This document shows positions 13,317 through 34,634 of a stretch of DNA of 57,082 nucleotides, one piece after another (the stretch's first letter is position 1; every line of letters begins with the position of its first letter). The stretch spans positions 1-57,082 of the forward strand of contig CAYISE010000001.1 in assembly GCA_964366055.1 (NCBI GenBank), written 5' to 3'. The stretch comes from an uncultured Candidatus Saccharibacteria bacterium (GTDB lineage: Bacteria; Patescibacteriota; Minisyncoccia; UBA6257; GWB1-50-10). The notes below the pieces were generated by a model, which was not told the DNA's origin, ran no database searches, and saw only the letters and a program-made list of their open reading frames with translations. The position numbers and the translations under genes are program-made.

Positions 13317-14319
13317 TGGGATGCCTCAAATACCAATCGTAAGTTCTTTTCAATCCCTCTTCAAGAGATACATTCGGTTTCCAGCCGGTCAAGCTTTGCA
13401 ATTTCGTGATGTCGGCGAGCCGTCGCTTTACGCTTCCCGGCGGGGACGATTTTATATCCAATTTTTTCGGCCGCCAGCCCGCGATTTTAAAAAGTTTTTC
13501 CACCAGTCCTTTCATATTGATTTCCTCAAGGTCGCCGATGTGCACGGTTTCAATCGGCTGGTTGTCGGTTTTCGGAGAATCCATAAGTGCCTGCATCGCC
13601 CGAATCGCGTCATCAATATAACAAAAGGTTCTCGTATCATCACTGCCGTAGATTGGAAAGGGGTCAACTTTATTCGCTATTCTCAAAGAGAACTCCGGTA
13701 TCACGTGGTCATAGCCGGCCCGCGGACCGTAAAAATTATGAGGACGAATTACCAAGGCCCGGAAATTTAACATCTTGGCATAATGAATGACGAATAACTC
13801 GCCTACCAGCTTGGTTGAAGCGTAAGACCAGCGCGGATTATAGGGGTCTTCTATCACAAGCGGAACCTTTTCGGGCGTCGGGATGGGCAAAATACCGAAA
13901 GCATTCAATCCCCCGGCGTAGGCCTCATTTGAAGAAGTGAAACAGAATTTGCCTTCGCGATTATGCTTGGCAAACCAATCAAGCATATGAACCAGAGTGA
14001 GAGTGTTGATTTTCAAAACCTCGTGGGGAATTTCGTAGAAAAGTTTGGTGCCGTTAACGGCCGCAAGGTGATAGACACGAGCATATCCGCTACCCAGTTT
14101 TTCATACGAAGCAAGGTTGGTGAGATCCAAAGTCAAGAACTTTATCCTCGGGTTTTTTATCAATTCTCCGAAATCCTCATCCATCTTTCCTCTTCGGAGA
14201 TTATCCACCAAGACAATTTCTGCTTCGGTACTCTGAAGCAAATGATTCGCCAAATGATAACCGATGAATCCCGCCCCGCCAGTTATGAGAATTTTCATGC
14301 TTCGCGCAACAGATTCCAA
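13303..14319 (-). CDS. NAD-dependent epimerase/dehydratase (extended SDR)
   Basis: 338 aa. GGAGFIGYHL and YASTK (YxxxK). Confidence 0.8.
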   Translation of the reverse strand: MESVARSMKILITGGAGFIGYHLANHLLQSTEAEIVLVDNLRRGKMDEDFGELIKNPRIKFLTLDLTNLASYEKLGSGYARVYHLAAVNGTKLFYEIPHEVLKINTLTLVHMLDWFAKHNREGKFCFTSSNEAYAGGLNAFGILPIPTPEKVPLVIEDPYNPRWSYASTKLVGELFVIHYAKMLNFRALVIRPHNFYGPRAGYDHVIPEFSLRIANKVDPFPIYGSDDTRTFCYIDDAIRAMQALMDSPKTDNQPIETVHIGDLEEINMKGLVEKLFKIAGWRPKKLDIKSSPPGSVKRRLADITKLQSLTGWKPNVSLEEGLKRTYDWYLRHPNEKI

Positions 14320-15503
14320 ACATCCACAAATTTCTTATCCGGATGATTCTTGGGATTGATCTCCAAATATTTCTTATGGGGCGTCGCCAGTATCAGAATA
14401 TCGGATTTCGCCAAAGCGACATCCAACGGAACGAATTCCGGGTTTTTGATGTGCTCATCGGTACAAAGAACCGTCTTGCACTCCATTTGGGCCATTTTCC
14501 GAAGCTTGTATGACAGGGACGCGCGCGGGTCATCCACTTCCGCCTTGAAAGCCATACCCAGAATTCCGACCGTCTTATCTTTAAGCGAATGTCCGTATTC
14601 CCGCTTCAGGTCGCCTATGACGTGATTGACTAATCCTTCATTCACCAGCATCGCCGCGTGGCCGATCCAAAAATTGTTATTGGTAAAAGCGGCCAGTTGC
14701 ATCGTGTCCTTAAAAAGGCACGGGCCGGCGGCAAAACCCGGCGACGGCAGGTCGCGGTTGCGCGGATAATCCTTATTCATCGCCCGATGGATATTGTGAT
14801 AATTAAGACCGTGGTCTTGGGCGATCATAAAAAACTGATTGGCCACGGCAAACCGGATGTAACGCCACGAATTTGTAAAAAGTTTTGCCAATTCCGCTTC
14901 AATCGGCTTGACGGGGATTATATCCGCCGGAGTGATTTTCCTGAAGAGCGCGGTCACTTCCTTTATGGTCTCATCGTCAAAACCCGAAATAATTTGGGGC
15001 CATAATTTCAACTCCTCTATCGCGTGCCCCTGCATAATCCGCTCCGGACAAAATGCTAATTTAACTTTTTTACCTTTCTTCAAGAAGTGATTCTGAAGTT
15101 TTTCGGTAGTCCCCGGAAAAACCGTGCTCCGAAGAATGACGAATTGCCCGTCTCTGAAATAATCAATGCTCCTGTCTATTAGCCGGGTGATACCGCCGAA
15201 ATCGGGACTAAGATACTCGTCTACCGGCGTCCCCACGATAACAACCACGAATTTGGATTGGCTGATGGCTTCCGGAGAATCGGTCGTGAACAAAAGATTT
15301 TTTTTCAGGGCGGATTGCAGCGCTTCATCGCCGTCTTTCTCCTTGAAGGGAAACCGGCCGGACTGAATTTTTTCCAGCGCGGCCTTGTTGATATCCAAGA
15401 GGATTGTCTTTACGCCGCAATCGGCAAAAACCACGCCCAAAGGCAGGCCAACGTGCCCGGCGCCGCCAATAATACAAAGCTCATATTTGGCATTGTTTTC
15501 CAT
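14295..15503 (-). CDS. nucleotide-sugar 6-dehydrogenase (UDP-glucose/GDP-mannose dehydrogenase family)
   Basis: IIGGAGHVGLPLG NAD loop and catalytic-Cys region GFAAGPCLFKD. The track start at 15548 is a TTG. I prefer the ATG at 15503 (MENNAKYEL...), which removes the overlap with the upstream NUDIX gene. Confidence 0.8.
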   Translation of the reverse strand: MENNAKYELCIIGGAGHVGLPLGVVFADCGVKTILLDINKAALEKIQSGRFPFKEKDGDEALQSALKKNLLFTTDSPEAISQSKFVVVIVGTPVDEYLSPDFGGITRLIDRSIDYFRDGQFVILRSTVFPGTTEKLQNHFLKKGKKVKLAFCPERIMQGHAIEELKLWPQIISGFDDETIKEVTALFRKITPADIIPVKPIEAELAKLFTNSWRYIRFAVANQFFMIAQDHGLNYHNIHRAMNKDYPRNRDLPSPGFAAGPCLFKDTMQLAAFTNNNFWIGHAAMLVNEGLVNHVIGDLKREYGHSLKDKTVGILGMAFKAEVDDPRASLSYKLRKMAQMECKTVLCTDEHIKNPEFVPLDVALAKSDILILATPHKKYLEINPKNHPDKKFVDVWNLLREA

Positions 15504-15516
15504 TGAGATTAATATA

Positions 15517-16104
15517 TTATTTTTTACTCTCTCTGTCAAATCCCGCAAATATTTCCGGGTAAAGCAGTGAGGCCTTCATCACGCACGCAACGGTATCCGC
15601 GACCCAAATCTTTCCTTCCTTAATCATTTTTAATGTTTCTTGCGGAGAGACGGCGACTATTTCAATATCCTCCGTTACTTCAAGGTTTTGCTTTGGATTG
15701 AACTCCGCGTTTCTGACGAGATAGCAATGGACGATGTGCATTATTTTTGTCGGGACGTTGGAAACTTCGCCAATTCTGATGAGGTCGCTCGCCTCCGCTT
15801 TGATGCCGACCTCCTCTTCCAGTTCCGCGAGAGCCGATTCTTCCGGGGTCTTGCCCTCTTGCTGAAACCCCGCGGGAAGTTCAAGGGTTATTTCTCCCAA
15901 GCCGTGTTTGTATTGTTTCGTAAAAACAATTTTATTGCCTTTCGTTATGGGTAAAACCATCACCGCGTGAATCATCCGGGAAATAAAGTAGTCGTCTATC
16001 ACCGTCCCGTTGGGCAGCTCCACGGTGTGCTGGAAAACGGGGAACCACTTACTCGGAGAAACATCCGCTTCTTTAAGTATCTTCCACTTTTTTATGTTTT
16101 TCAT
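15517..16104 (-). CDS. NUDIX hydrolase
   Basis: 195 aa. Nudix box GKTPEESALAELEEEVGI. Confidence 0.8.
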   Translation of the reverse strand: MKNIKKWKILKEADVSPSKWFPVFQHTVELPNGTVIDDYFISRMIHAVMVLPITKGNKIVFTKQYKHGLGEITLELPAGFQQEGKTPEESALAELEEEVGIKAEASDLIRIGEVSNVPTKIMHIVHCYLVRNAEFNPKQNLEVTEDIEIVAVSPQETLKMIKEGKIWVADTVACVMKASLLYPEIFAGFDRESKK

Positions 16105-16118: not shown

Positions 16119-17618
16119 TTAATCGCACTTATAAATCGCGTACCCATAACCCGGCATTGTATTACCGAGTTTTATGCCGAATACTTCAGGCAAATCGCGA
16201 GAAAATTTATCGGTTGAGAGCGCGCATCCGGGAATTTCGGGGGGGACGAGCATTCCGCTGTACCGTTGCTGGAAAAAAATGAAGGCGGTATTTTCTTTTG
16301 GCTTTTCCGGCCAAGTGTTATACGAATACATTCTGTCATAATCTTCCGAAAGCGACCAGAGACCACCCGTTACCCCGAACTTCAGATGGCTATCCGGATA
16401 TTCCCGGCTGATTTTCCTGAAGGCATCGCGGGCCCCGTAAAAATCGAGGGATTGCCCCAAAAAAACTGGGAATAAAAAAACCGTCCGCGCGATGCCGGTG
16501 GCGACAAGAGCGAGAGTTAGAAAAACAGCGCCTCTCGCGGCAATCCCCGACTCCGAAAAGTAGCGGATAAAACCGAGGAAAACGAGAGGAGAAAAAGATA
16601 AAAGGTAGAAAATGTGCCCGACCGAATAAATCATGCTTCCCAACATAAAAACAAGACCCGCCGCGCAAACCGCAAAAATGAAGAGTGAAGTTATCCGTTC
16701 GCGGTATTTTCTGTATAAAAAAATACCGGATATGAGAATAAGCAATGTAACAAAGCCGTAAAACGGAGTCACCGGCGATAAAAAATAGTAGTGCAGAAAA
16801 TTAGGCAATGTAAACAAATCGCTGAATTGCGAAGTGTAGCTCCGGCTCACCATTAAAGCGTTTTTGACGGTGCCAGCCAAAGTTTCCCGAATACCGAACG
16901 GGCCCAAAGAAATTACTGAGAAAAGCGTCAAAAATCCGACCAATATAACAGAACCGAATCTCAAAAAAAAATCCCTCGATTTGAATTTCACCGCCAGCAT
17001 CGCTCCCAAAATAAGGACCGAGATGATACTGGCCGCCAGATGCGTGGCGAGCATAAATCCCAAGAGAATTCCATACAAGAGCCAATCATATTTCTTGATA
17101 TAAAAAAACACGAGAAGGCCGAGCGTTACCCATAAACCGGCGAGTATTTCAGGTCGGCCACTACCGCCATTCAAGCCCGAAGCCAGCGCCAAAAGCCCGA
17201 GCATAATTACAAAAAGAGCCGGCCAACTTAACTCTTTTCCCCGCCTCGCCGCCCGGTAAAATAAAAACGCGCTCAACCAAATCACAACTATGTTTAAAAG
17301 AGCGATGGTCACGAAAATATCCACGGGCGACACTCCAGACAGCCCGCGGCTTAAAATCAGCGGAAACAGGGGCGGATAAAATAAAAATCTCTTCAAACCG
17401 GAGGGGTCTATCAAATTGAGCGCCTGCTCATCGGGAAACAAAGGGCTGGTTAAAACGCCCTTATTCGCGAATTGGATGGCCGGTACCAGAAAAAATGACG
17501 AGTCGCCGCCGGGAACGGGATAGGCGTTGCGCGCGAAAACAAAAAGCAGTACGGCTGTGGTCAGACAAAAAAAGATTAAAACCGCTTCTTTTAAACCCAG
17601 CTTGCTTAAAAAATTCAT
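16119..17618 (-). CDS. polytopic membrane protein, candidate GT-C-like glycosyltransferase or polymerase (paralog of 23747-25267)
   Basis: 499 aa with about 11-13 hydrophobic segments. It shares these blocks with the 506-aa protein: AYPV..GDS, DPSG.K.F.F.PPLFPL.LS, GRPE.LA, LATH, SE.Y.RMY.Y, and the C-terminal FGI.L.NT.PGY....Y.C. Confidence 0.5.
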   Translation of the reverse strand: MNFLSKLGLKEAVLIFFCLTTAVLLFVFARNAYPVPGGDSSFFLVPAIQFANKGVLTSPLFPDEQALNLIDPSGLKRFLFYPPLFPLILSRGLSGVSPVDIFVTIALLNIVVIWLSAFLFYRAARRGKELSWPALFVIMLGLLALASGLNGGSGRPEILAGLWVTLGLLVFFYIKKYDWLLYGILLGFMLATHLAASIISVLILGAMLAVKFKSRDFFLRFGSVILVGFLTLFSVISLGPFGIRETLAGTVKNALMVSRSYTSQFSDLFTLPNFLHYYFLSPVTPFYGFVTLLILISGIFLYRKYRERITSLFIFAVCAAGLVFMLGSMIYSVGHIFYLLSFSPLVFLGFIRYFSESGIAARGAVFLTLALVATGIARTVFLFPVFLGQSLDFYGARDAFRKISREYPDSHLKFGVTGGLWSLSEDYDRMYSYNTWPEKPKENTAFIFFQQRYSGMLVPPEIPGCALSTDKFSRDLPEVFGIKLGNTMPGYGYAIYKCD

Positions 17619-18725
17619 TTATTCGGCCTCAAAAATAAACTCATCCGTTAAAAAATAATCGCGGCTCGGTATAAAAGCGCGCTTCTTTGAAAACAACCTC
17701 ACGCCGCATTTCACCGCCCTCATAATAACATAGGGGAGAAACACGGCTACTATAATTAATTTTTCCATCGGCGCGTAATCCTTGAAAAAGATATCAATGA
17801 CGTTAGTAAAATATCTTTTCCAGACAAAGAAACTCAACTTTTTTCTAAATAAATCCGATAAAGCGGACGCGAGTATGCTTAGCCCGAATGAAAAATGCAC
17901 ACCTCTTTGATATTTTTTTAAATTCTCCGAACCGGCATAAATGGCTTCGTACGCCCGACGGATAGCGAGAGAATAGCGGACGGGACCTTCCAAATCCTCG
18001 GTGAACCCGCCCTGCAATCCAACGTGATTCGCTCCATGGATTGTATTAACATACCCCGCTTCGCGTATGATAACGAAATATTCATAATGCATTAACACCC
18101 CCGGAAAGATCATGCCATCTATCGGCTCCGGTATGCCGCCTCGTTTGATTAAACTCGTAGGCCTTGCCAACTCCCTTCTCAAAGAATTGACATAATCCTC
18201 CTTTCGCATAAGAGAATGGAATCCCCCGGCGGCGATGCTGGGATGATTGTAGCAATGACGGAAAAACCAATCGGCTGAATATCGGCCGGGTTTTATCCGG
18301 GTTTCATACGTAAAAATCATTTTGCCGGCGTCCGCGATCCTAAATGTAACGTCTCTCGTGAAGATGGCGGCGGTATCGGGATTGGCAAGAAAATATTTCA
18401 CGGATTCCTCAATATAATTCCGGGAAAGCCAATCATCGCTGCCTAAGGCCTCTATAAGATAGCCGGCGCCGGACTCGGCGCATTTTAAATAATTATTGCC
18501 GCTGCCGATATTCGTTTCATTCCGAAAGTATTTGACCCGCGAATCGCGCTTGGCATACCGCGAGACCACTTCGCGCGTATTATCCGTGCTGGCATTATCA
18601 ACCACGATAATCTCAATATTGCGATAGGTTTGGTTCATGCCGCTTAGTATGGCGCGCTGAACCATGTCAACGCGGTTAAAAGTGGGTATGCAAATACTGA
18701 CTAAGGGATTTCTATCCATTGTCAA
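17619..18725 (-). CDS. family 2 glycosyltransferase with C-terminal membrane segments
   Basis: 368 aa. VSICIPTFNR...VVDNASTDNT, GSDD (DxD-like), hydrophobic C-terminal third. Confidence 0.8.
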   Translation of the reverse strand: MTMDRNPLVSICIPTFNRVDMVQRAILSGMNQTYRNIEIIVVDNASTDNTREVVSRYAKRDSRVKYFRNETNIGSGNNYLKCAESGAGYLIEALGSDDWLSRNYIEESVKYFLANPDTAAIFTRDVTFRIADAGKMIFTYETRIKPGRYSADWFFRHCYNHPSIAAGGFHSLMRKEDYVNSLRRELARPTSLIKRGGIPEPIDGMIFPGVLMHYEYFVIIREAGYVNTIHGANHVGLQGGFTEDLEGPVRYSLAIRRAYEAIYAGSENLKKYQRGVHFSFGLSILASALSDLFRKKLSFFVWKRYFTNVIDIFFKDYAPMEKLIIVAVFLPYVIMRAVKCGVRLFSKKRAFIPSRDYFLTDEFIFEAE

Positions 18726-19466
18726 TTATCTTATCCTCTTCAAAAACCCATCGGGGGCGACTGTTATAAGCAATTTATTTCCCATCTCTTCATCAACCGC
18801 AAAATTCTTATGCTCCCTAAGAAACTTTTTGACGGCTGTTAGTGGGCTATTACCCTTGTCCCAGGGCCGATTTTTATTGCTGCCTTTCGGCATATATTCT
18901 ACGAGGGTATCAAAAGCCACTATATAACTTCCTTTGGAAACCAATGGGGAGTAAAGTTCGAGCTCGCGCAAAACATGTGTACCAGAATGATTTGAATCCA
19001 AAAATATCAAGATTTTTTTCTTGCCTTTGGCGATTTTTTTTACCCGGCTGATGATTTCCGGTGCAACCGAAGAACCCTCAATCATCTTTATCCTTTCGAA
19101 CATCCGGTGCTTCTCTATTTCGCGCCGATTGTGTTTTCTAATATCTATATCAATTCCCAATACTTCTCCTTTACCGCCTATCAATTCCAAAATCGAAGCG
19201 GATAGGATTATGGAACCGCCATGGGCAATCCCAGTTTCAATCACCAGATCTGGCTTAACACTCCAAATTAGCTCCTGCATCGCCATGATATCCTGCGGAT
19301 ATTGAATTATCGGCCGGCCCAGCCAAGTGAAATTGTACATATATCGGCTGAGCGCGGCTTTAATCGAAAAATCCATAGCACTCGCCTTTAGTTTCTTGTT
19401 CTTTCCCTGCCGAACGATATTTTGTCTGACTTCCTCTTTAAATTGTTCTATAGGATTATTTTTCAT
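18726..19466 (-). CDS. CmcI/cephalosporin-hydroxylase-family methyltransferase (sugar O-methyltransferase-like)
   Basis: 246 aa. WLGRPIIQYPQDIMAMQELIW..KPDLVIETGIAHGGS is the characteristic CmcI-family signature. Confidence 0.75.
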   Translation of the reverse strand: MKNNPIEQFKEEVRQNIVRQGKNKKLKASAMDFSIKAALSRYMYNFTWLGRPIIQYPQDIMAMQELIWSVKPDLVIETGIAHGGSIILSASILELIGGKGEVLGIDIDIRKHNRREIEKHRMFERIKMIEGSSVAPEIISRVKKIAKGKKKILIFLDSNHSGTHVLRELELYSPLVSKGSYIVAFDTLVEYMPKGSNKNRPWDKGNSPLTAVKKFLREHKNFAVDEEMGNKLLITVAPDGFLKRIR

Positions 19467-20416
19467 GACTTTAACCGATTGATGATTTCTTCTTCTTTTA
19501 TCTCAAAAACATCCGATGTCGGGTGAAGCCAGTCATCGCCCAATCGGCGCTTTATGACTACCTTTTTATCCAGCGGCATGCCGGCCAATTCGGCCAAAAG
19601 TGCGTCGGCGGCCACATGAGCGCTCTTACTGTCATCCATGACGACAATCTTCTTGGTTTTTTTAACACTTTCAATTATGGGCAACCAATCGGTCGCAAGC
19701 GCTGAATTAACGTTGAAATGCGCCGTATTTACCTTTCGCTCATTAAGCGTGGAATTTAGCTTATGAGCTTGAGGGAATGAAAAATTGAAAGAAACGAGCG
19801 TGGCACTATCCCCTTCCGAATATTGAAAGATCGCTCCGTCTCCGAATACCTTGATAGGTTTGCCCGGGTCAATAATCTCGGTCTTCCCGAGCCGCTGGCT
19901 TACTCCGATGATCCTGAAACCCGGCTGAACCAGATATTTATTGAAAATATATTCCGCATCTTCTTTATTCGTAACCGCAAACCCCGGAATTCTCGCGACC
20001 GAACAAAAATCGGCGAAATTATTCAGGGCGGACTGGGGACCCTCATAACCGCTATCCACGACTGTCGCCACTATCGTGAAAGAACCTTCCTTCGGCTGAT
20101 GCCCCATATTTCGGATTATATTGTAGGTATTCACCAACTGGTCTATGCCCAGAAGAAGAAAATCCATTTGTTTCATGAAGAAAACGCCGGAGGCGCCGTT
20201 CAACATCAGACCGAAACCGAAACCGACCAAACTATTCTCGGCATTCGTGGAATTAATGATCCGTCCACCCGACTGAACAGCAAGACCCTTCGTAAGTCCG
20301 CCAATGCAAGAGCCGGCGTTAATATTCTGCCCGAAGAGCACGGCATGCTTGGGTTTTAAAACCTCTTCTTTTATCAAGCTGTTGACGTGTTCAATATATT
20401 TCATTGCGAAGTTCAC
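19463..20416 (-). CDS. ThDP-dependent 2-oxoacid dehydrogenase E1 component, beta-subunit-like (transketolase Pyr and C domains)
   Basis: 317 aa. NAENSLVGFGFGLMLNGASGVFFMKQMDFLLLGIDQLVN resembles the E1-beta pyrimidine-binding domain. Translationally coupled to the alpha subunit. Confidence 0.7.
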   Translation of the reverse strand: MNFAMKYIEHVNSLIKEEVLKPKHAVLFGQNINAGSCIGGLTKGLAVQSGGRIINSTNAENSLVGFGFGLMLNGASGVFFMKQMDFLLLGIDQLVNTYNIIRNMGHQPKEGSFTIVATVVDSGYEGPQSALNNFADFCSVARIPGFAVTNKEDAEYIFNKYLVQPGFRIIGVSQRLGKTEIIDPGKPIKVFGDGAIFQYSEGDSATLVSFNFSFPQAHKLNSTLNERKVNTAHFNVNSALATDWLPIIESVKKTKKIVVMDDSKSAHVAADALLAELAGMPLDKKVVIKRRLGDDWLHPTSDVFEIKEEEIINRLKS

Positions 20417-21299
20417 TCATTACCGTTTGGGACAATTTTCCAAATTCATCCGAACCGATCTCCTGTTTTATCACGAAGACCGGATCGTCTTCGTTCTCCC
20501 TGAGGATCACCTTCGCCATATCCACAGTCGGGGCCGGGCCAGCGTGATAATTGATGTATCTTCCGTCGTCGGCTCTCCTATCGCCGAGGGTTTTCACGGT
20601 TATTTCAACACAAGCCGGATCGTCGCTTCTTAACGCTTCTCCCTTTATCCCTTTCAGCATTTCTATGTATTTATGGCAATGATTTCCATCAAGCTTGAAA
20701 TAGGAAATATTGACCGAGCCGGCCATCTGTTTCAGATCTATATTACATCTCCTTTCCGAAATGCTCGTGCCCAAAGACCACTCGTTATTTTCTATCATGA
20801 AGACCAGTCTTAATCCCAATGTCTTCGCCAAAACAAGGCTTTCATAGAAGCTCCCTTCTTCCATTGAGCCATCACCGCCAAAAACGAAAACCACGCCTTT
20901 TTTTTCTTTCATCTTCTCGGCCATAGCAATGCCGGATGCGACGGGAAAATTATTTCCCAAAATGCTGGAGCTATAGATGACGTGGCGCGCCGGATCAATG
21001 AGATTCATTGAACCCAATCTCCCGCCGGCAAGACCGGTGGATCTCAAAAGATACTCGTCCAGAATCGGTCGCAATTTTCCGAGCTGGGCGAGATTATAGG
21101 CCATATTCCGGTGCGACAATATCAGCTTATCTTCGCCAGCAAGAATATGATTCATCGCCGCGGCAATCGCTTCATGGCCAAGAGCCAAATGAACCGGGAT
21201 CTTGAACTTCCCGGCCTTATACTCCTCGTTTATGAGGAGTTGGCTTATCCTAAGCCGTAGGATTTCCTCCGCTATTTTCGTGTCTTTTAGATCGGCCAT
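20391..21299 (-). CDS. ThDP-dependent 2-oxoacid dehydrogenase E1 component, alpha-subunit-like
   Basis: 302 aa. HLALGHEAIA..., SHRNMAYNL, and the ThDP motif GDGSMEEGSFYESLVLAKTLGLRLVFMIENN (GDG-X26-NN). Confidence 0.75.
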   Translation of the reverse strand: MADLKDTKIAEEILRLRISQLLINEEYKAGKFKIPVHLALGHEAIAAAMNHILAGEDKLILSHRNMAYNLAQLGKLRPILDEYLLRSTGLAGGRLGSMNLIDPARHVIYSSSILGNNFPVASGIAMAEKMKEKKGVVFVFGGDGSMEEGSFYESLVLAKTLGLRLVFMIENNEWSLGTSISERRCNIDLKQMAGSVNISYFKLDGNHCHKYIEMLKGIKGEALRSDDPACVEITVKTLGDRRADDGRYINYHAGPAPTVDMAKVILRENEDDPVFVIKQEIGSDEFGKLSQTVMSELRNEIY

Positions 21300-21362: not shown

Positions 21363-21839
21363 ATGGAAATACCTCAATTATCCAAGAAAGAAATAGATGA
21401 GTGTTTGCTACGAGCCGAAGATTCAGGAAGGCGCCGCTACGCAAAAATCTTGCATAAGCCCGGCGATGAATTGAATCGGGCCTTCAATTTTATGCTACCG
21501 GATTCGTATATGCGTCCCCACTATCATCCAAGCGAGGAGAAAATAGAAAACATAAAAATCGTAGATGGAAAAATAGCGGTGGTTTTTTTTGACGACAAGG
21601 GAAGCGTGAAGGAAACGTTTATCTTGGAGTTGGACGGAAAAATGGAGATTGATGTGCCCGCTTTCGTCTGGCACACCTACGTCATTCTCTCCGATTACGC
21701 CATCACCTACGAGACGATGATGGGCGTCTATGACCCAAAAACCTATAAAAATTTCGCGGAGCAATGGGCGCCCGCCGAAAACACACCCGAAAGCGTCAGA
21801 TATTTGGAACTTCTGAAGGAAAGGACGGCCGCTCTTTGA
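21363..21839 (+). CDS. WbuC-family cupin-fold protein
   Basis: 158 aa. RRRYAKILHKPGDELNRAFNFMLPDSYMRPHYHP...IVDGKIAVVFFDDKG matches my memory of WbuC-like cupins found in O-antigen loci. Confidence 0.65.
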   Translation: MEIPQLSKKEIDECLLRAEDSGRRRYAKILHKPGDELNRAFNFMLPDSYMRPHYHPSEEKIENIKIVDGKIAVVFFDDKGSVKETFILELDGKMEIDVPAFVWHTYVILSDYAITYETMMGVYDPKTYKNFAEQWAPAENTPESVRYLELLKERTAAL

Positions 21840-22902
21840 GCCAGCGCAAATCGTCGGAAAGATATTGGTTTTCGTGAAGATACTCAAGTTGTTGAAGACG
21901 ATAAAAACCTTTATTTTTGAACATCTCCCGATTCATTGAGATTCTTTGGAAAAGCGCCACCATCTCCTTCATGCCCCGTTCAACACTCCATTCGCATTTG
22001 AAACCGGGGAATACTTCTTTTATCTTCGCGAACGAAACCTTGTAGGTGCGCGTATCCACGCCCCCTTTTACTTTGCGGTCGCGAATAAGGCCTTCTTTGT
22101 CCAAATCCGGATTCTCGTTCAAGAATTTAACTTCGCATCCAGGCACCGCTCCCGCTGCGATCTTCGCAAGTTGGATCACTTGGAGATTATTGGCTTCGTC
22201 TCCCACATTCAATACCAACAACTCACCGCCATTATAATCCAGCTCAATGGCGCGCCGGATGGCTTCGCAAAAATCCAAAATGTGCACATTCGGCCGCCAC
22301 GGCGTTCCATCCGAATTCAAAACGATGGCCTTGTCCGTGAAGGCCATCCCCGCGAACATATTGACCACCACATCAAATCGCAGGCGGGGCGACGAACCGA
22401 AAGCCGTCGCGAAGCGCAGGGCAATCGGCGAGAAATCCTTATCGCTTATGGAACGCAAATCTTCTTCTACCTGAATCTTATTTAACGAATAGCCCGTTTG
22501 GGGATGAGTGGGCGATTCTTCGGTCAAAAAATCATCGCCGCCTATTCCGTAAACGGAACAGCTGGAGGCGAAGATGAATTTTATCCCCTTCTTTTTGCAA
22601 ATCTTCGCGATAGCCAAGCTGTAGGCCCGAGTCGGGTCATAGACGCGCGCCGCATCCAGTTTCCCGACGGGGTCGTTGGAGATTCCCGCCAGATGCACCA
22701 CGGCGTCAAAGCCGTTCAAATCCTTTTCTTCAATATCCCGGACATCTTTCAGAATCGTCTCCGTCTCAATCGGTTTATAGAGAAGGCAGTCGCGGAAAAA
22801 TCCGGTGTCGTAGCCAACGCATTTATTGCCCCGGCTCTCAAGATAAGGAGTCAGAACGCTTCCGATATAACCCAGAGAACCTGTCACCAAAACTTTTTTC
22901 AT
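21796..22902 (-). CDS. NAD-dependent epimerase/dehydratase (extended SDR)
   Basis: 368 aa. VTGSLGYIGS Rossmann loop and YSLNK (YxxxK). Confidence 0.75.
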   Translation of the reverse strand: MKKVLVTGSLGYIGSVLTPYLESRGNKCVGYDTGFFRDCLLYKPIETETILKDVRDIEEKDLNGFDAVVHLAGISNDPVGKLDAARVYDPTRAYSLAIAKICKKKGIKFIFASSCSVYGIGGDDFLTEESPTHPQTGYSLNKIQVEEDLRSISDKDFSPIALRFATAFGSSPRLRFDVVVNMFAGMAFTDKAIVLNSDGTPWRPNVHILDFCEAIRRAIELDYNGGELLVLNVGDEANNLQVIQLAKIAAGAVPGCEVKFLNENPDLDKEGLIRDRKVKGGVDTRTYKVSFAKIKEVFPGFKCEWSVERGMKEMVALFQRISMNREMFKNKGFYRLQQLEYLHENQYLSDDLRWLKERPSFPSEVPNI

Positions 22903-23750
22903 ATCTTTTTGAAATATTCTACCGTTTTTCTAACGCCTTCTTTTATGCTTGTCCGCGGCTTCCAGCCGATTTCCTTTTTTATTTTTGAAATATTGGCATA
23001 GAACCCCCGCGGACGCGCTCTTTTGAGGCACCACTTCGGCGCCGGCAAATTGAAACTCTTATAAACCTCTTTCGCCACCTCCGCCACGCTCGTGAGACGA
23101 CCCGAGCCAATATTGTAGATTACGCTCGGCTTTTTGCTTTTTTCAAGAATTTTTATAAGAGCGTCGGTAACATCATCAATATAAACGAAATCGTTGGCGC
23201 CGGATTTATTCTTCACTTCCGGCATGACTCCGTTTTTAAAACTCCGGACGAGATGCGCGATAAGAGTCCGGGGCTTCTGACCCGGACCGTAGGCAAAGAA
23301 CAATCTGACCCACAAGAATTGCATTTTGCTTTGAAGAGCGATTTGTTCCCCCATGGCCTGAATGGTTCTCTTCGCGATGACGAAATCCGGAACGTGAGCC
23401 GGCAATAAAAGAGGAGCCGATTCCTTCAGGGCGCCTTCTCCGTCGCCGTACTCCCAGCAACTCCCGACCGAAAGGAATTTTTTGCACCCGAGCTCGGCGG
23501 CCGCGGAAATGATGTTCAAACTGTTCGTCATATTTCTCAAACTCACAGCGGCCGTGAAATCGTATTGCTCAAGCCCCTCCCAAGCCAAGTGAATCACGGC
23601 ATCCGGCCGGAATTTTTTGAGCTCTTTCTTCCAGACATCAATGTCTTTTAAATCCCCCTTCAGAAAAAGCAGTTTGTGCTTGCGCGCGATAAGCTTCGGC
23701 GCCAAATGCGAACCGATGAAACCGCTTCCGCCGGTAATAAAAATTCTCAT
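22899..23750 (-). CDS. NAD(P)-dependent epimerase/reductase (SDR)
   Basis: 283 aa. ITGGSGFIGSHL, with a 4-nt overlap to the downstream SDR. Confidence 0.75.
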   Translation of the reverse strand: MRIFITGGSGFIGSHLAPKLIARKHKLLFLKGDLKDIDVWKKELKKFRPDAVIHLAWEGLEQYDFTAAVSLRNMTNSLNIISAAAELGCKKFLSVGSCWEYGDGEGALKESAPLLLPAHVPDFVIAKRTIQAMGEQIALQSKMQFLWVRLFFAYGPGQKPRTLIAHLVRSFKNGVMPEVKNKSGANDFVYIDDVTDALIKILEKSKKPSVIYNIGSGRLTSVAEVAKEVYKSFNLPAPKWCLKRARPRGFYANISKIKKEIGWKPRTSIKEGVRKTVEYFKKI

Positions 23751-25267
23751 TGTTCAGAGGAACAATCGTACACGCCGAAAGCGTAGCCGGGCGTGGTATT
23801 AGCGAGAGGAATGCCGAAAATAACGGGTTTCTTGCGGATGAAAAAGTCCTTCACAGCGCGGCAGTAAAACAGTTCAGCCGGTAATTCAGTCCAGCCGTTT
23901 ACTCCCTCCCTCATAATAATGGTGGTGGTCGGATATTTAACGTCTTCGTAATCGCCATAGAGATACATCCGGCCATAATTCTCGGAAATAGGCCAAATAG
24001 TTCCGTCAACGCCGATCCGTTGGTTCGGGTCTAAAGGCAACTGTTGAAAGGCGGCCCGAGCGCGCTCCAAAGACATACCCGATTTAATGAAGAACGGGAA
24101 CAACGCCAACCGATAGAAAAAAACCAGGGAACTCAAAACTATCGCCAGGAGGGCGACATATTTTAATACTTTTGAACGCGCCAGAAACGCGGGGTAATAA
24201 GCGATAATCAAAATCCACAGCGGCGTCAGCGCGAAGACATAAGAAAGGTTCTGCTTGTACACGAGCAATAGAAAGAGGAGACCGGCCGTGAGAAGGCCGA
24301 ATAAATAAAAAAGAAGGGGCGCCGCGATTCTATTTTTAAAACGCCGATAAAATAATAATGAACATGCGAGAGAGAATGTAATAATCAATCCCTGAAAAGC
24401 AGCGCTCCCGGAAACGGTGAGATTGGAGATAATTTTGATAAGAAAGTCCTTAGTGATTGAAAACGGCTGGATAATGACCGGCGGTTGGCCGCTCGCCAGA
24501 TACCCCGCCGGACTCAAACCGGAATTGAGACGAGAGAACTGATGGAATACGCCCTGCGCGGTCGGCAAGAAACCATAACCGAAAATCTGCGTAATCAGAA
24601 AGAAAACAACGAGCGAAACGGCGAGGGCGAGAAACGTCAGGCCGAGGGCTTTTTTCATCGGATGATAGAAGGCGAAAAAGACGCCGATGAGAGGCGCGAA
24701 AAGAATAGCCGGCCCGGGATGAGTGGCGAGGTTTAAGCCAAGAACCGCGCCCAAAAGAAGCCACAACCAATTTTTATGGGGATAGAGCAATCCAAAAAGC
24801 GCTAATGTCATTAATAATCTGGCAAGCGTTTCGGGCCGGCCGGGATAGAAAATGGTGATGGCGGCGAGAGAAAATAAAGAAAACGCGTAAATAACGATAC
24901 GGTGCCAGCCGGCTTGTTCCCAATCGGGAATCAGCAACTTCTTATAAGCGAAGGCGGCCAAAAGAATGGTGGCGGCATAAAGTGTGAAGAGCGCCAGATG
25001 CGCGCCCTGCGGAGTCCCGGCGGGCATGAGCCAACTAAGGACGAGGGGAAACAACGGCGGAAATACCAAAAATTTACCGGCGCCGGACGGGTCTCCGGCG
25101 AGAAACATCGGGGAGAGCTGATTTATAAGCCCGTGGCCCAACTTGTGATTTATCGCGGTGGCGGCATAATATATGGAATCACCGCTCATAACCGGATAAG
25201 CGCGCAGGGCAAAAATAAAGAGAATGACAATTATAAAAAGTGGGACGAGGTAGACCGCCATCCGCAT
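23747..25267 (-). CDS. polytopic membrane protein, candidate GT-C-like glycosyltransferase or polymerase (paralog of 16119-17618)
   Basis: 506 aa with many TM segments. It shares conserved blocks with the 499-aa protein (see that entry). It is divergently adjacent to a DPM1/Ppm1-like GT2. Confidence 0.5.
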   Translation of the reverse strand: MRMAVYLVPLFIIVILFIFALRAYPVMSGDSIYYAATAINHKLGHGLINQLSPMFLAGDPSGAGKFLVFPPLFPLVLSWLMPAGTPQGAHLALFTLYAATILLAAFAYKKLLIPDWEQAGWHRIVIYAFSLFSLAAITIFYPGRPETLARLLMTLALFGLLYPHKNWLWLLLGAVLGLNLATHPGPAILFAPLIGVFFAFYHPMKKALGLTFLALAVSLVVFFLITQIFGYGFLPTAQGVFHQFSRLNSGLSPAGYLASGQPPVIIQPFSITKDFLIKIISNLTVSGSAAFQGLIITFSLACSLLFYRRFKNRIAAPLLFYLFGLLTAGLLFLLLVYKQNLSYVFALTPLWILIIAYYPAFLARSKVLKYVALLAIVLSSLVFFYRLALFPFFIKSGMSLERARAAFQQLPLDPNQRIGVDGTIWPISENYGRMYLYGDYEDVKYPTTTIIMREGVNGWTELPAELFYCRAVKDFFIRKKPVIFGIPLANTTPGYAFGVYDCSSEQ

Positions 25268-25305
25268 GTGTTTATAGTAACACCCGGTTAAGAAAATTGA
25301 AATTT

Positions 25306-26043
25306 ATGATTAACGAAAAAAAAATTGTGATTGTGATACCCGCTTACAACGCGGCAAAAAAAATAACGACTGTGTTTGAACGCATCCCTAAAGAAATTTG
25401 GGATAAAAATTCTGCCGTCATTATCGTGAACGACGGCAGTACGGACGAAACAGGCGAAAAGATTAAAGAAATTCAAAAGCGCTGGAATACTCGAATTATC
25501 CCGATTATCAAACCGAAAAATGAGGGATATGCCCGCGCTCAAAAAACCGGTTTTGCCATGGCTCTGAACATGAATGCCGATATTGTTCCGCTCTTGCATT
25601 CGGACGGCCAGTACGCGCCAGAGATACTACCGGAGCTTCTTAAACCCCTTGAAAACGGCGATGTCGACATCGTCCAGGGATCGCGCATGATTGACAAACG
25701 CGCCGCGCTTCGCGGAGGAATGCCTTTCTACAAGTTCATCGCGAATATTTCTTTAAGCGCTCTTGAGAATCTGGTTTACGGCCTTCATTTCGCCGAATAT
25801 CACTCGGGCTACATGCTTTACTCCCGAAAAGCGCTTGAAACCGTTCCCTTTGAAAAACTCTCGGATACGTTTCACTTTGACGGCGAGATGCTTTTGGTGG
25901 GGGCAAAGAAAGGTTTGCGGGTAAAGGAAATTCCAATTTCCACGACATATGCCGATGAAGTGAGCCATCTTAAGCCGATTCAATATGGATTTCACGTTCT
26001 TGGTATCATGATAAAATACTTGCTTGGAAAATATAATTTTTAA
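25306..26043 (+). CDS. family 2 glycosyltransferase, polyprenyl-phosphate sugar synthase-like (DPM1/Ppm1/ArnC-like)
   Basis: MINEKKIVIVIPAYNAAKKI...VNDGSTDET...HSDGQY. The track start at 25240 is a GTG that overlaps the divergent gene. The ATG at 25306 fits the canonical GT2 N-terminus. Confidence 0.7.
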   Translation: MINEKKIVIVIPAYNAAKKITTVFERIPKEIWDKNSAVIIVNDGSTDETGEKIKEIQKRWNTRIIPIIKPKNEGYARAQKTGFAMALNMNADIVPLLHSDGQYAPEILPELLKPLENGDVDIVQGSRMIDKRAALRGGMPFYKFIANISLSALENLVYGLHFAEYHSGYMLYSRKALETVPFEKLSDTFHFDGEMLLVGAKKGLRVKEIPISTTYADEVSHLKPIQYGFHVLGIMIKYLLGKYNF

Positions 26044-26058
26044 TATATTCTATAAACC

Positions 26059-27072
26059 ATGAGTTCAAGAGTATTCATAACAGGCGTGGCCGGTTTTCTT
26101 GGGAGCCATCTGGCAGACAGATTGCTTCGGGACGGGCATGAAATTATAGGCATTGATAATTTTCTCGGCGGACACGAAGACAATATTCCGAAGGGTGTCC
26201 AATTTCATAAAATAGACGCGCGAGACCTTGAAAAATTAAAACCCCTCATGAAAGGGGTGGAAGTGGTATATCACTGCGCCGCCGCGCCGCACGAAGGGCT
26301 GTCGGTATTTTCTCCGGATCTCGTGACTCAACATACCTATAATTCCTCAATTGCAACATTAACGGCTTCAATCGTAAACAACGTGAAGCGGTTTGTATTT
26401 TGTTCAAGCATGGCACGCTACGGCAAACAGGAACGGCTTCCTTTCACGGAAGATATGCCTCCCAGACCTCAAGACCCCTATGGAATCGCCAAGTACGCTT
26501 CGGAACTCACAATTGAGAGCTTATGCGACGCGCACGGCATGGAATACGCAATCGCGATCCCCCACAATATCATCGGTCCGAGACAAAAATATGACGACCC
26601 GTTCCGAAACGTCGCCTCCATCATGGCCAATTTGATGCTTCAGGGAAGACAACCGATTATTTATGGTAACGGCGAACAGAAACGAGGGTTCTCGTACGTG
26701 CAAGATGTAACCGAACCATTGGTAAAAATGGGGTTCGACAAAGTAGCCGTGGGCGAGGCAATTAATATCGGGCCGGATGAGGAATTCACCACGATTAATG
26801 AATTGGCGCGCCGACTGGCTTCCATTATCGGATTCAAAGAATTACAACCGATTTACCACAACCCCCGGCCGCTCGAGGTAAAATTTGCTACATGTTCCGC
26901 GGATAAAGCGCGAAAACTTTTGGGATACAAGACAACATATAGCTTGGATGATGCGCTCACAGAGACAGTTGAATGGATTCGCAGGCGCGGACCAAAGCCC
27001 TTTATATATCATCTTCCCCTGGAGATTATCAATAAGCATACCCCAAGCACCTGGAAAGACCGCCTTTTTTGA
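26059..27072 (+). CDS. NAD-dependent NDP-sugar dehydratase/epimerase (extended SDR)
   Basis: 337 aa. TGVAGFLGSHL and YGIAK (YxxxK). Confidence 0.8.
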   Translation: MSSRVFITGVAGFLGSHLADRLLRDGHEIIGIDNFLGGHEDNIPKGVQFHKIDARDLEKLKPLMKGVEVVYHCAAAPHEGLSVFSPDLVTQHTYNSSIATLTASIVNNVKRFVFCSSMARYGKQERLPFTEDMPPRPQDPYGIAKYASELTIESLCDAHGMEYAIAIPHNIIGPRQKYDDPFRNVASIMANLMLQGRQPIIYGNGEQKRGFSYVQDVTEPLVKMGFDKVAVGEAINIGPDEEFTTINELARRLASIIGFKELQPIYHNPRPLEVKFATCSADKARKLLGYKTTYSLDDALTETVEWIRRRGPKPFIYHLPLEIINKHTPSTWKDRLF

Positions 27073-27082
27073 TACCGGCCTT

Positions 27083-27808
27083 CTACGATTCTCTGATAAT
27101 CATCTTTCTGGCGAAAGCGGACAAATGCGCCGGATGAGTGATGGTGTCCGGCGCTTTATCTGTTTTCCAAGCCACCAGTTGATTTCTTGCCGCCAGGTCG
27201 GGAAGGGTTGCTTTGTTTAAATTGAAATTATCCTTCTCCGGCATAAAATTAACAATATCCCGACTCATAATAAAAACGCCCACCTCCGTCCAATTGAATT
27301 TGGGGTCATTGGCCTCGGGGCCGTATACATAACTCAAAACATTATTTTTATCATCCACCCAGACATTGCGTTTGCTCTCTCCGCCGCCGCAAACCGCCAT
27401 CAGCCCTGATTTGCCGGAAGAAAAGTAAAATTCGCTCATCTTCGGCAAATTCAAAGCGGGCCAATAAACATCGCCGTACATCAGAAGGAATTCCGGAGCC
27501 AGAAGATTTTTCGCGTTCCTCACGCGGGCGCCGGTTTCATCTTCAATTTTGCCGACGTGATGTTTAATCCTTAAACCGAAACGGCGGCCGTCGCCAAAGT
27601 GTTCAATGAACTTTTCCGGAAGATAGCCCAGGAGCAGAACAATTTCTTCTATGCCATTTTTCTTCAAGGGGTCAAAAACATATTCAAGAAACGGGCGGCC
27701 ATTCACCAATACCATCAGTTTCGGCCGGTCATCAGTAAAGGGCCGAAGGCGCATTCCCCGACCGCCCGCTAAAATCACGGCTTGCTTAATTTTTTTGTTG
27801 CCATTCAT
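27083..27808 (-). CDS. sugar-1-phosphate nucleotidyltransferase
   Basis: 241 aa. AVILAGGRGMRLRPFTDDRPK matches the LAGG.G.RL.P.T..PK pyrophosphorylase signature. Confidence 0.8.
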   Translation of the reverse strand: MNGNKKIKQAVILAGGRGMRLRPFTDDRPKLMVLVNGRPFLEYVFDPLKKNGIEEIVLLLGYLPEKFIEHFGDGRRFGLRIKHHVGKIEDETGARVRNAKNLLAPEFLLMYGDVYWPALNLPKMSEFYFSSGKSGLMAVCGGGESKRNVWVDDKNNVLSYVYGPEANDPKFNWTEVGVFIMSRDIVNFMPEKDNFNLNKATLPDLAARNQLVAWKTDKAPDTITHPAHLSAFARKMIIRES

Positions 27809-27832
27809 CGTAAATTATTATAAAATCGCATT

Positions 27833-28255
27833 ATGAGAATAAAAAAAATCAGCCCGGAATGCAACTTGGCGACCGTCCGGGACGGTCGCGGGGGTATTTT
27901 TACGTTTTACCCCGAAAAACCAATTGTTGAATTTAATTTCGTATTTGTTAATAAGGGCAAAATAAGAGGCAATCATTATCATCCGGAATTTGATGAATAT
28001 TATTTAATCACCTCCGGCCAGGGCGTGATAGTAACAAAATCCGAGGACGGCAAGGAAGAATTTCTTTATGTTGGCACGGGGGACTGCCTGTATCTGCCTC
28101 AAGGCGCGCCCCATGTTTTTTACGGCATTACTGACTGCACCATGGTCTCCTTTTTGGCTAAAAGGTGGAACGATTGCGCCGCGCCTATTGTTCACGAAAA
28201 CCTGGGTATGGGCGCCGGCGACCACGGCGACCCCAACTATACGGGAATCAATTAG
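27833..28255 (+). CDS. cupin-domain protein (sugar isomerase/epimerase-like, CapF C-terminal-like)
   Basis: 140 aa. KIRGNHYHPEFDEYYLITSGQGVIV is a cupin metal-binding motif. Confidence 0.5.
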   Translation: MRIKKISPECNLATVRDGRGGIFTFYPEKPIVEFNFVFVNKGKIRGNHYHPEFDEYYLITSGQGVIVTKSEDGKEEFLYVGTGDCLYLPQGAPHVFYGITDCTMVSFLAKRWNDCAAPIVHENLGMGAGDHGDPNYTGIN

Positions 28256-29183: not shown

Positions 29184-29218
29184 TAGACACCATTATACGG
29201 TTATTCTATCATTTGTAA

Positions 29219-31981: not shown

Positions 31982-31984
31982 AAA

Positions 31985-32548: not shown

Positions 32549-32551
32549 AGT

Positions 32552-33790: not shown

Positions 33791-33827
33791 AAGACAGATG
33801 GATTATAACAGCAAAATGGGGAATTGG

Positions 33828-34631: not shown

Positions 34632-34634
34632 GTT

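Follow-up and report, generated by a model that had tools for sequence, protein, structure and literature searches.

What does a pyruvate dehydrogenase-like E1 enzyme do in the middle of a sugar cluster? The question is raised by the 57,082-nt stretch of DNA analysed here (hereafter called "the window"), from an uncultured Candidatus Saccharibacteria bacterium, in which two overlapping genes encode homologues of the alpha and the beta subunit of the E1 component of 2-oxoacid dehydrogenases, which requires thiamine diphosphate (ThDP). Unless the plus strand is indicated, the E1 pair and the operon genes named below are read on the minus strand. By analogy with the sugar-branching enzymes of antibiotic biosynthesis, we consider it somewhat probable that the pair is a stand-alone ThDP carboligase of the AviB1/B2–KbDH kind, which would add a C-acetyl branch to a keto-sugar nucleotide. 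Judged from its sequence and surroundings, the pair belongs to a distinct, uncharacterised clade, marked by a cell-surface glycan setting, a GDP-heptose context and a remodelled active site. The genomic context is the main functional evidence.

The E1-type subunits and their genes

In E1-alpha, the ThDP motif consists of Gly142-Asp143-Gly144, 26 residues, and Asn171-Asn172, exactly the GDG-X26-NN pattern given in an earlier, sequence-only reading of this DNA. The subunit matches the E1-alpha chains in the PDB at E 3e-15. The hidden Markov model check proposed in that reading turned out weakly positive overall: PF00676 (E1_dh) matches E1-alpha with 109 bits (E 2e-31), over profile positions 16-222 of 300 only, while in E1-beta the Pfam profile search did not detect PF02779 and gave PF02780 21.3 bits, under its cut-off of 25.9 bits. 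The product of 19463-20404 is nevertheless clearly an E1-beta homologue over nearly its whole length. Its residues 5-263 match the NCBIfam E1-beta subfamily NF006667 (E 4.6e-11), and the PDB chains 1ik6 and 1um9_B match over about 270 residues at E ~1e-9. The AlphaFold models of both subunits have predicted local distance difference test (pLDDT) scores of 84-86 (86 for E1-beta) and predicted template modelling (pTM) scores of 0.86-0.88, and they resemble the chains of human pyruvate dehydrogenase (PDH), human branched-chain 2-oxoacid dehydrogenase (BCKDH) and Thermus E1 with TM-scores of 0.77-0.80, at 17-22% identity. Human and Thermus E1-beta align with the beta model at 0.77-0.80, and human E1-alpha aligns with the alpha model at 0.80. 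The pair thus holds the parts of the heterotetrameric E1 fold, with a pyrophosphate-binding (PP) domain (GDG...NN) in alpha, and a pyrimidine-binding (PYR) and a C-terminal domain in beta.

The open reading frames (ORFs) exist on the minus strand as the sequence-only reading described them, and the beta gene, which it placed at 19463-20416, is indeed E1-beta-like and overlaps the alpha gene; only its start has to be moved. The ORF reaches a GTG at 20416 (317 aa), and the true start is almost certainly the ATG at 20404 (MKYIEH...), because the N-termini of the family agree with it and because a 100%-identical database protein has 313 aa. From this ATG, the start of the beta gene overlaps the alpha stop codon by 14 nt. 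The next gene downstream encodes a CmcI-type methyltransferase, whose start shares an ATGA with the beta stop, and a family 2 glycosyltransferase (GT2) gene abuts that of CmcI.

Departure from the E1 of dehydrogenase complexes

Both subunits miss the curated E1 family scores (the NCBIfam equivalog or subfamily cut-offs). E1-alpha reaches 145 bits with TIGR03182, about one third of the PDH E1-alpha cut-off of 394, and E1-beta reaches 42 bits with NF006667, about one eighth of the cut-off of 321.

In order to see which residues changed, we compared the window pair and 32 relatives with 9-10 ordinary E1 pairs from fetched loci. The GDG motif, the ENNEWS motif and the ThDP-activating Glu of beta are kept across the clade, and in the E1-alpha family alignment GDG, ENNEWS and His252 are invariant. 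A His in the invariant NYHAGP motif of the clade alpha lies near the canonical alpha GHS His, and the C-terminus of the clade alpha is about 40 residues shorter than that of ordinary E1-alpha. In beta, the canonical "HS" His, present in 9/9 ordinary E1-beta subunits, is Asn in 33/33 members of the family. This Asn sits in the conserved loop D-x-G-[YF]-x-G-P-Q-S-x-x-N-N, in which no His is conserved. According to the titles of the PDB entries 1ols and 1olx, the canonical beta His has a role in reductive acylation.

Domain scans of the window, which took in most of the 35 glycan-cluster ORFs at 1.0-37.9 kb (those from 1.0 to 35.8 kb, with the operon of the E1 pair itself from 14.3 kb on) as well as 21 ORFs of 180 aa or more on the flanks, revealed no E2 (2-oxoacid_dh), E3 or lipoyl domain, in agreement with the earlier description of a stand-alone pair, and the related loci L001-L005 contain no E2, E3 or lipoyl genes. 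Because the cut-offs are missed, the beta His is replaced, E2 and E3 genes are absent nearby and the clade resides in sugar operons of such lineages as Patescibacteria and Nitrosopumilales, an assignment of the window pair to the ordinary PDH, BCKDH or acetoin E1 enzymes is largely refuted, as the sequence-only reading had suspected.

A clade associated with sugar operons

How widespread is such a pair? The E1-alpha query retrieved 1,600 proteins, of which each of the best 120 shares at least 51% identity with it, and the E1-beta query retrieved 1,311 proteins at E ≤1e-5, most of which carry no Pfam annotation; the clade comprises about 1,300 non-redundant sequences. The named relatives come from Patescibacteria, Nitrosopumilus, Nitrosotalea and Thermodesulfobacteriota. 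In the JGI and NCBI records, relatives bear the name "pyruvate dehydrogenase E1 component alpha/beta subunit" or else "TPP-dependent pyruvate/acetoin dehydrogenase" (TPP, thiamine pyrophosphate). An identical E1-alpha protein occurs on contigs named Hain_H43_01um, which we read as a groundwater 0.1-um filter fraction. This protein, the nearest relatives and the common gene order all suggest that the window stems from a Patescibacteria-like organism. A locus scan of one genome per GTDB species, limited to two clade motifs, yielded 30 loci at 45-75% identity, followed by ordinary E1 genes at 29%. The nearest loci belong to Patescibacteria (75%) and Saccharibacteria (71%), and the others to Nitrosopumilales, Nitrospirae, Lentisphaerae, Cytophagaceae, Marinimicrobia and Proteobacteria metagenome-assembled genomes. 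No Coxiella or actinomycete locus appeared in this motif-limited scan, and a tblastn search of plasmids returned ordinary E1 only, at less than 37% identity. A sharp family boundary, as the gap from 45% to 29% would imply, was rejected: an exhaustive search of 1.84 billion representatives, with only 78 matches at E ≤1e-30, shows a gradient. Because identity declines gradually from 51% to 29% in that search, intermediate subfamilies appear to exist between the clade and ordinary E1.

We next examined the gene context within 10 kb in 30 species-representative loci, using six-frame ORFs and, as queries, the 35 cluster proteins of the window and the proteins of a compact Lentisphaerae operon. E1-beta directly follows E1-alpha in 29/30 loci, the exception being a contig end. 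An orthologue of the 368-aa short-chain dehydrogenase/reductase (SDR) of the window, or an alternative 295-aa SDR, accompanies the pair in 27 (the three misses are truncated loci), and at least one GDP-heptose pathway gene is present in 26 (the four misses are loci of at most 10 kb). An HddA-like kinase and an RmlC-like epimerase are each found in 24 of the loci, the 283-aa reductase-like SDR in 21, a C-methyltransferase in 19 and CmcI likewise in 19. The 10 ordinary E1 loci lack all of these features. Directly upstream of E1-alpha lie the 368-aa SDR orthologue and a cupin gene in 6-8 of the 30 loci, and the 295-aa SDR in 19 others.

The heptose genes of the relatives include GmhA (121 bits), HddA (154 bits) and GmhB (183 bits, above cut-off), together with an HddC-like nucleotidyltransferase that is fused to GmhB in some of them. 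In Patescibacteria and Saccharibacteria, the genes form a single operon in the order C-methyltransferase, RmlC, HddA, (GmhA), SDR-A, HddC::GmhB, 283-aa SDR, 368-aa SDR, cupin (inverted), E1-alpha, E1-beta, CmcI and GT2. The GDP-heptose pathway is the strongest association of the clade, and was overlooked in the sequence-only reading; its embedding of the E1 pair in a sugar operon is borne out both by the neighbours in the window and by the 30 related loci.

Gene fusions reinforce this link, because E1-alpha is joined to nucleotide-sugar enzymes. Nucleotidyltransferase–E1-alpha proteins occur in Candidatus Giovannonibacteria (two sources), and SDR–E1-alpha (two cases), GHMP-kinase–E1-alpha and cytidylyltransferase-like–E1-alpha fusions were also found. 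A B12-radical-SAM–E1-alpha fusion (SAM, S-adenosylmethionine) has eight members on several contigs. The fusion proteins are P0247, P0248, P0333, P0339, P0354 and P0370; the nucleotidyltransferase and radical-SAM fusions stand on several independent contigs, while the others are singletons and may be assembly or gene-calling artefacts. We also note that in the Lentisphaerae and Nitrospirae operons (L030, 11862-15085; L026, 11848-15131), E1-beta is directly followed by one B12-binding radical-SAM gene and two genes of the radical-SAM/SPASM kind, a hint that the same sugar may be C-methylated further or rearranged.

Proposed reaction

How could an E1 pair act on a sugar nucleotide? Pairs resembling E1 alpha and beta that branch sugars are called alpha-KADH2 in the literature (PMC12247030). 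E1-like two-carbon branching of keto-sugars is described for aldgamycin, avilamycin, paulomycin, everninomicin, kosinostatin, trioxacarcin and kibdelomycin (PMC12247030; PMC4425429; PMC10338323), and the pairs include AviB1/AviB2 (avilamycin), Pau11/Pau12 (paulomycin), AlmDI/DII (aldgamycin), EvdU5/EvdS3 (everninomicin) and KbDH-alpha/beta (kibdelomycin). In vitro, KbDH-alpha/beta uses pyruvate only and adds to ketones, including sugar analogues, at C3 or C4 (PMC12247030). The branching of aldgamycin is documented by knock-out and feeding (PMC4425429), and that of paulomycin by a pau11 knock-out (PMC10338323). The AviB1/AviB2 precedent named in the sequence-only reading is therefore correct, with this literature and the KbDH assays behind it (PMC12247030). 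As to which donor and acceptor the window organism would use, where the attack would occur and in which order the steps would follow, we propose the scheme below.

Acceptor formation: The SDR encoded just upstream of E1-alpha, a candidate of the Cj1427-like C4-dehydrogenase type, would make a nucleoside diphosphate (NDP)-keto-sugar, and the cupin would possibly adjust the stereochemistry of the keto-sugar or epimerise it. Among solved structures, this 368-aa SDR is most similar to 6vo6/6vo8 (E 2e-25 over residues 2-324), of which we take 6vo6 to be C. jejuni Cj1427, a GDP-heptose C4-dehydrogenase. Cj1427 makes GDP-4-keto-heptose (PMC10680097). In most relatives, the sugar would be a derivative of GDP-D-glycero-D-manno-heptose.

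Donor activation: The alpha2-beta2-type E1, presumably recruited from the 2-oxoacid dehydrogenases, would work without E2, E3 and lipoate. As E1 enzymology suggests, alpha would bind ThDP and Mg through GDG-X26-NN, and the beta Glu would activate the cofactor. A small 2-oxo acid, most likely pyruvate, would then be decarboxylated to the hydroxyethylidene-ThDP carbanion.

Branching: The carbanion would add to the carbonyl of the NDP-keto-sugar rather than to lipoamide, which would produce a tertiary alcohol with a C-acetyl branch. Subsequently, the reductase-like SDR, the CmcI-type methyltransferase and the GT2 would finish and install the sugar.

With lower confidence, the clade could represent a widespread and undescribed pathway for a higher-carbon, multiply branched heptose on the surfaces of Patescibacteria, ammonia-oxidising archaea and other uncultivated phyla, built with a remodelled E1. 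In this tentative version, the heptose would carry a C-acyl or hydroxyalkyl branch, often together with a C-methyl and an O-methyl group, and the active site, remodelled by a change of His to Asn in each subunit, may use a donor or a reaction unseen in alpha-KADH2. It may also explain the unassigned E1-like genes of Coxiella burnetii. Does the C-methyltransferase act on the same sugar? The sequence-only reading proposed that the glycan may contain two kinds of C-branched sugar. The separate C-methyltransferase is confirmed, yet one doubly branched sugar is as likely as two separate branched sugars: the C-methyltransferase shares one contiguous operon with the E1 pair in relatives, although it is missing from 11/30 loci, some of them full-length.

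Comparison with known systems

Like the alpha-KADH2 enzymes, the window pair has separate alpha and beta genes and stands inside a nucleotide-sugar cluster without E2 or E3, with enzymes predicted to generate a keto-sugar adjoining it and reductase and methyltransferase tailoring after it; the SDR, whose activity is predicted, lies within 10 kb in 27/30 loci and in some cases is fused to E1-alpha. The clade differs from alpha-KADH2 in its location, since it is found in cell-surface glycan clusters of Patescibacteria-like bacteria and archaea rather than in secondary-metabolite clusters, and in its usual GDP-heptose basis, as compared to the dTDP-deoxyhexose or UDP-pentose basis of alpha-KADH2. 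It also has substitutions of its own, namely the beta His to Asn change, the HRN and GSMN motifs of alpha and the short alpha C-terminus. We set the clade beside alpha-KADH2 by gene context and reaction analogy, with kinship at the superfamily level, and the PDB fold-search matches of either subunit include no alpha-KADH2 enzyme structure.

C-acyl-branched sugars of the cell envelope are known. Yersiniose, erwiniose and caryophyllose occur in lipopolysaccharide (LPS) and are made by YerE-type enzymes. As against the earlier statement that two kinds of C-branched sugar would be unusual for a cell-envelope polymer, C-acyl branches as such are not rare there; the unusual element is the E1-type catalyst in place of a YerE-type one. 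YerE, ErwE and MMAR_2332 share with our proposal a ThDP-bound acyl anion that adds to a keto-sugar nucleotide and an envelope polysaccharide setting. They are single-chain enzymes resembling acetolactate synthase (ALS), which branch CDP-4-keto-3,6-dideoxyglucose for LPS sugars. YerE, a single TPP-dependent flavoprotein, belongs to the decarboxylase/ALS-type ThDP superfamily, in contrast to the E1 alpha/beta pair of the window. A YerE-like single-chain ALS/pyruvate-oxidase architecture was ruled out for the window genes, which encode two subunits in which E1_dh dominates and PF02775 gives a weak partial match of 23 bits. A split-gene transketolase of the miharamycin/amipurimycin type was likewise ruled out: the transketolase profiles yield 19-33 bits and the E1-alpha profile 145 bits, and 6yaj, a split transketolase, comes after E1-beta chains in the fold search. 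With the E1 enzymes of PDH, BCKDH and acetoin dehydrogenase, the window pair shares the fold, the subunit split, the ThDP motif and the cofactor Glu; unlike them, it has neither the beta His, nor E2/E3 partners in the window, nor a catabolic context.

The upstream part of the proposed pathway has a counterpart in Campylobacter jejuni, whose GDP-heptose pathway uses the C4-dehydrogenase Cj1427, cupin epimerases and C4-reductases; the relatives of the window pair carry GmhA, HddA, GmhB and HddC with the set of SDR, cupin and reductase. Unlike the clade, the C. jejuni pathway has no ThDP enzyme or C-methyltransferase, and neither "thiamine" nor "C-methyl" occurs in PMC10680097.

Coxiella burnetii provides a precedent at an envelope locus: it also has E1-like genes, unassigned in function, of which CBU_0686 lies in an LPS-encoding region with CBU_0691 and methyltransferase genes (PMC5554327). 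One paper interprets them as "pyruvate dehydrogenases" that were gained by horizontal transfer and serve fatty-acid metabolism (PMC5423948; PMC5554327). An HldE-like heptose-activation gene of Coxiella (CBU_0678) is needed for virenose (PMC13252051). The Coxiella genes are likened to the clade by description, and no Coxiella is among the motif-matched loci.

A more distant glycan-type cluster with an E1 pair is found on the Solidesulfovibrio magneticus plasmid pDMC1 (L046, record 22514-35407). It comprises two GT2 genes, radical SAM, NUDIX and kinase genes, E1-alpha and a "transketolase C-terminal" E1-beta, followed by genes for a GDP-fucose synthase, a DegT aminotransferase, an SDR, a nucleotidyltransferase and a PMT-type glycosyltransferase. 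Since the pDMC1 pair keeps the beta His, we rejected the notion that sugar-branching E1 enzymes are generally marked by its loss. We also rejected a eurekanate-like route, in which a UDP-GlcA decarboxylase would supply a 4-keto-pentose to the E1 pair through the products of 14295-15548 and 13303-14319, because the dehydrogenase is nearest to UDP-ManNAc dehydrogenase and Cap5O, and the SDR is nearest to epimerases (6zl6) rather than to decarboxylases.

Weighing the alternatives

Could the pair be an ordinary catabolic E1 for pyruvate, a branched-chain 2-oxoacid or acetoin, present in the sugar cluster by chance and served by E2 and E3 encoded elsewhere? In Pfam, NCBIfam and the PDB it matches PDH and BCKDH E1 subunits best, and the database labels of its relatives read "pyruvate dehydrogenase E1". 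Nevertheless, we regard this as highly improbable: alpha scores about one third of its equivalog cut-off and beta about one eighth, the beta His for lipoyl acylation is gone in the whole clade, a sugar-operon context surrounds the pair in 30/30 loci across phyla as compared to 0/10 ordinary E1 loci, E1-alpha is fused to sugar enzymes, and the 57 kb contain no E2 or E3. Moreover, the closest relatives belong to Patescibacteria and Nitrosopumilales, lineages usually reported to have no PDH complexes. A catalytically dead structural remnant, which the replacement of several canonical active-site residues might suggest, is just as hard to credit. GDG, NN and the cofactor Glu are kept, and with 57-66 invariant columns and a mean column identity of 64-68% across phyla, the very high conservation within the family argues for a constrained and, by prediction, active enzyme, whose active site is under strong purifying selection. 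Somewhat less improbable, though still quite unlikely, is that the pair makes a small acyloin or acyl donor, which is then O- or N-attached to the glycan (acetoin-like or lactyl-type) with no C-C bond. E1 enzymes and acetoin:dichlorophenolindophenol (DCPIP) oxidoreductase can form free acyloins (PMC12247030), and the cluster is rich in decoration genes for carbamoyl, methyl and amino transfer; yet the conserved core holds no acyltransferase or ligase, and the invariant partner is an NDP-sugar SDR that in some cases is fused to E1-alpha.

A more serious contender, which we hold to be possible though doubtful, is a sugar-pathway ThDP enzyme with a different chemistry or donor. Hydroxypyruvate, glyoxylate or 2-oxobutyrate would give a glycolyl, a formyl/hydroxymethyl or a propionyl branch; otherwise, the pair might serve as a lyase or decarboxylase for a 2-oxo or alpha-hydroxy-keto intermediate that derives from a sugar, or act on the exocyclic C6-C7 chain of a heptose instead of ring C3/C4. 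The observations that weigh against a C-acetyl carboligase belong here. That reading is drawn from sequence and gene context, at superfamily-level homology. In the clade alpha, the canonical YR.H becomes HRN and GSMH becomes GSMN, so that His is exchanged for Asn in both subunits in a clade-specific manner and the canonical alpha C-terminal region is lost, and these substitutions could signal another donor or another reaction. The pDMC1 pair, in its glycan cluster, keeps the canonical active-site residues (AAQHSQ). The association with heptose genes is tight. Radical-SAM genes of the B12 and SPASM kinds follow E1-beta in L026 and L030, and a radical-SAM–E1-alpha fusion exists. Coxiella has E1-like genes, yet its O-antigen sugars are reported with methyl or hydroxymethyl branches and not with C2 branches, and no acetyl- or hydroxyethyl-branched sugar has been reported in it. 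In addition, split transketolases have been proposed to transfer hydroxyacetyl units in miharamycin biosynthesis. On the other side, all known alpha-KADH2 sugar-branching enzymes give C2 branches according to a 2025 review, and KbDH accepts pyruvate only (PMC12247030). By chemical reasoning, a transketolase-type cleavage needs a free hydroxyl beside the carbonyl, and a pyranosyl nucleotide has its ring oxygen there instead; moreover, no dedicated gene for donor supply, such as an aldolase, is seen in the conserved core.

The window itself supplies a last point against the C-acetyl reading. With Lentisphaerae and then Patescibacteria queries, no GmhA (SIS), HddA (GHMP kinase) or GmhB (HAD) gene was found in the 57 kb, down to E 0.01, while heptose genes accompany the E1 pair in 26/30 loci, including the closest relatives of the window (L006, L007, L009, L010 and L021 were compared). 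The 345-aa SDR-A is not in the window either, and the nucleotidyltransferase at 27083-27808 corresponds to the N-terminal half only of the HddC::GmhB fusion of relatives (196-218 bits against those of L006 and L007), with the phosphatase half missing. Either the heptose-supply genes of this organism lie elsewhere in the genome, or a hexose is fed into the pathway; because these genes are lost from the window or kept outside it, the acceptor in the window organism may be a hexose analogue.

The glycan cluster of the window

The neighbours of the E1 pair named in the sequence-only reading (CmcI, the WbuC cupin, SDRs, GT2s and the C-methyltransferase) were all recovered by domain searches, and the features are listed in Table 1.

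Table 1. The E1 pair and sugar-pathway genes of the window
Feature	Positions	Strand	Remarks
SDR	13303-14319		closest to epimerase-labelled structures (6zl6)
Nucleotide-sugar dehydrogenase	14295-15548		closest to UDP-ManNAc dehydrogenase and Cap5O
GT2 glycosyltransferase abutting CmcI	17619-18725	-	PF00535, 98 bits
CmcI / rhamnosyl-O-methyltransferase-family SAM methyltransferase	18726-19466	-	PF04989; start overlaps beta stop
E1-beta-like subunit	19463-20404	-	313 aa from ATG 20404; PYR domain and transketolase-C-like domain
E1-alpha-like ThDP/Mg-binding subunit	20391-21299	-	302 aa; PF00676; GDG-X26-NN
WbuC-family cupin (DUF6016)	21363-21839	+	TIGR04366, 102 bits; PF19480
Extended SDR, 368 aa	21796-22902	-	PF01370
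SDR, 283 aa, GDP-fucose-synthase/4-reductase-like	22899-23750	-	
Sugar-1-phosphate nucleotidyltransferase	27083-27808	-	PF00483; HddC and Man-1-P guanylyltransferase-like
RmlC-type 3,5-epimerase	31985-32548	-	PF00908, 198 bits; TIGR01221, 175 bits, above cut-off
TylC3-type NDP-keto-sugar C-methyltransferase	32552-33790	-	PF08421 and PF08484
Dehydratase/epimerase-like SDR beside C-methyltransferase	34635-35822		

The CmcI-type protein belongs to the PF04989 family (304.6 bits against a gathering score of 23.2) and falls below the rhamnosyl-methyltransferase equivalog (102 bits against a cut-off of 400); its nearest PDB entry is CmcI (E 4e-7). The GT2 that follows it is a candidate for the transferase of the modified sugar, and its orthologue follows CmcI in L001, L006, L009, L010 and L021. 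The 368-aa SDR is a candidate for the producer of the keto-sugar acceptor, as predicted from its family. The cupin gene runs against the direction shared by the other operon genes, and 44 nt of it overlap the 3' end of the SDR gene. An inverted cupin gene between SDR and E1-alpha is also found in the Saccharibacteria and Patescibacteria loci L007, L009, L010 and L021, and the cupin is co-directional in loci of other phyla (L005, L014 and L032).

Two proteins of 499 and 506 aa, encoded at 16119-17618 (-) and 23747-25267 (-), have about 10-11 hydrophobic segments each and match no Pfam or NCBIfam family; they could be flippases, polymerases or GT-C-type transferases that have gone unrecognised. 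The peaks of AT skew at 16-18 kb and at 24-26 kb are due to their genes, and the 499-aa protein is kept downstream of the GT2 in L001, L006, L009 and L010. The window has three NUDIX hydrolase genes, at 15517-16104 (-), 29219-29902 (+) and 52314-52886 (-), two of which lie inside the glycan cluster; a NUDIX gene is also found in the pDMC1 cluster and in L001, and the proteins may be nucleotide-sugar hydrolases for quality control. At 3095-6889 (-), genes for an FkbM-type methyltransferase, a DegT/EryC1 aminotransferase and a two-domain carbamoyltransferase stand in a row, which suggests an amino sugar and an O-carbamoyl group as further parts of the same glycan. At 36488-38638 (-), the cluster closes with a membrane protein of the Wzy_C kind (O-antigen ligase/polymerase-like), after which comes a fragment of an IS200-like Y1 transposase (37946-38638). 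Beyond it, at 38753-44465 (-), proteins of 1,146 and 184 aa each have a PG_binding_1 (peptidoglycan-binding) domain as their sole match, and the G+C content climbs from about 0.46 to 0.54-0.56 across 40-44 kb.

Implications

The "pyruvate dehydrogenase E1" labels on the approximately 1,300 proteins of the clade are probably wrong, so that a partial PDH may be inferred in error when metabolism is reconstructed from the reduced genomes of Patescibacteria and ammonia-oxidising archaea. If the pair is a sugar-branching carboligase, this would offer a hypothesis for the function of "pyruvate dehydrogenase" genes that have long stood unassigned in glycan loci, Coxiella's among them, and the clade enzymes would be candidates for the biocatalytic synthesis of tertiary alcohols. 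To date, alpha-KADH2 enzymes have been described only from actinomycete antibiotic clusters, and the branching of envelope polysaccharides has been assigned to the unrelated YerE type (PMC12247030). Our proposal, if true, would extend E1-type branching chemistry to the cell surfaces of Patescibacteria and Nitrosopumilales, which are little-understood microbes, and it would predict a new class of branched heptoses in S-layer or envelope glycans.

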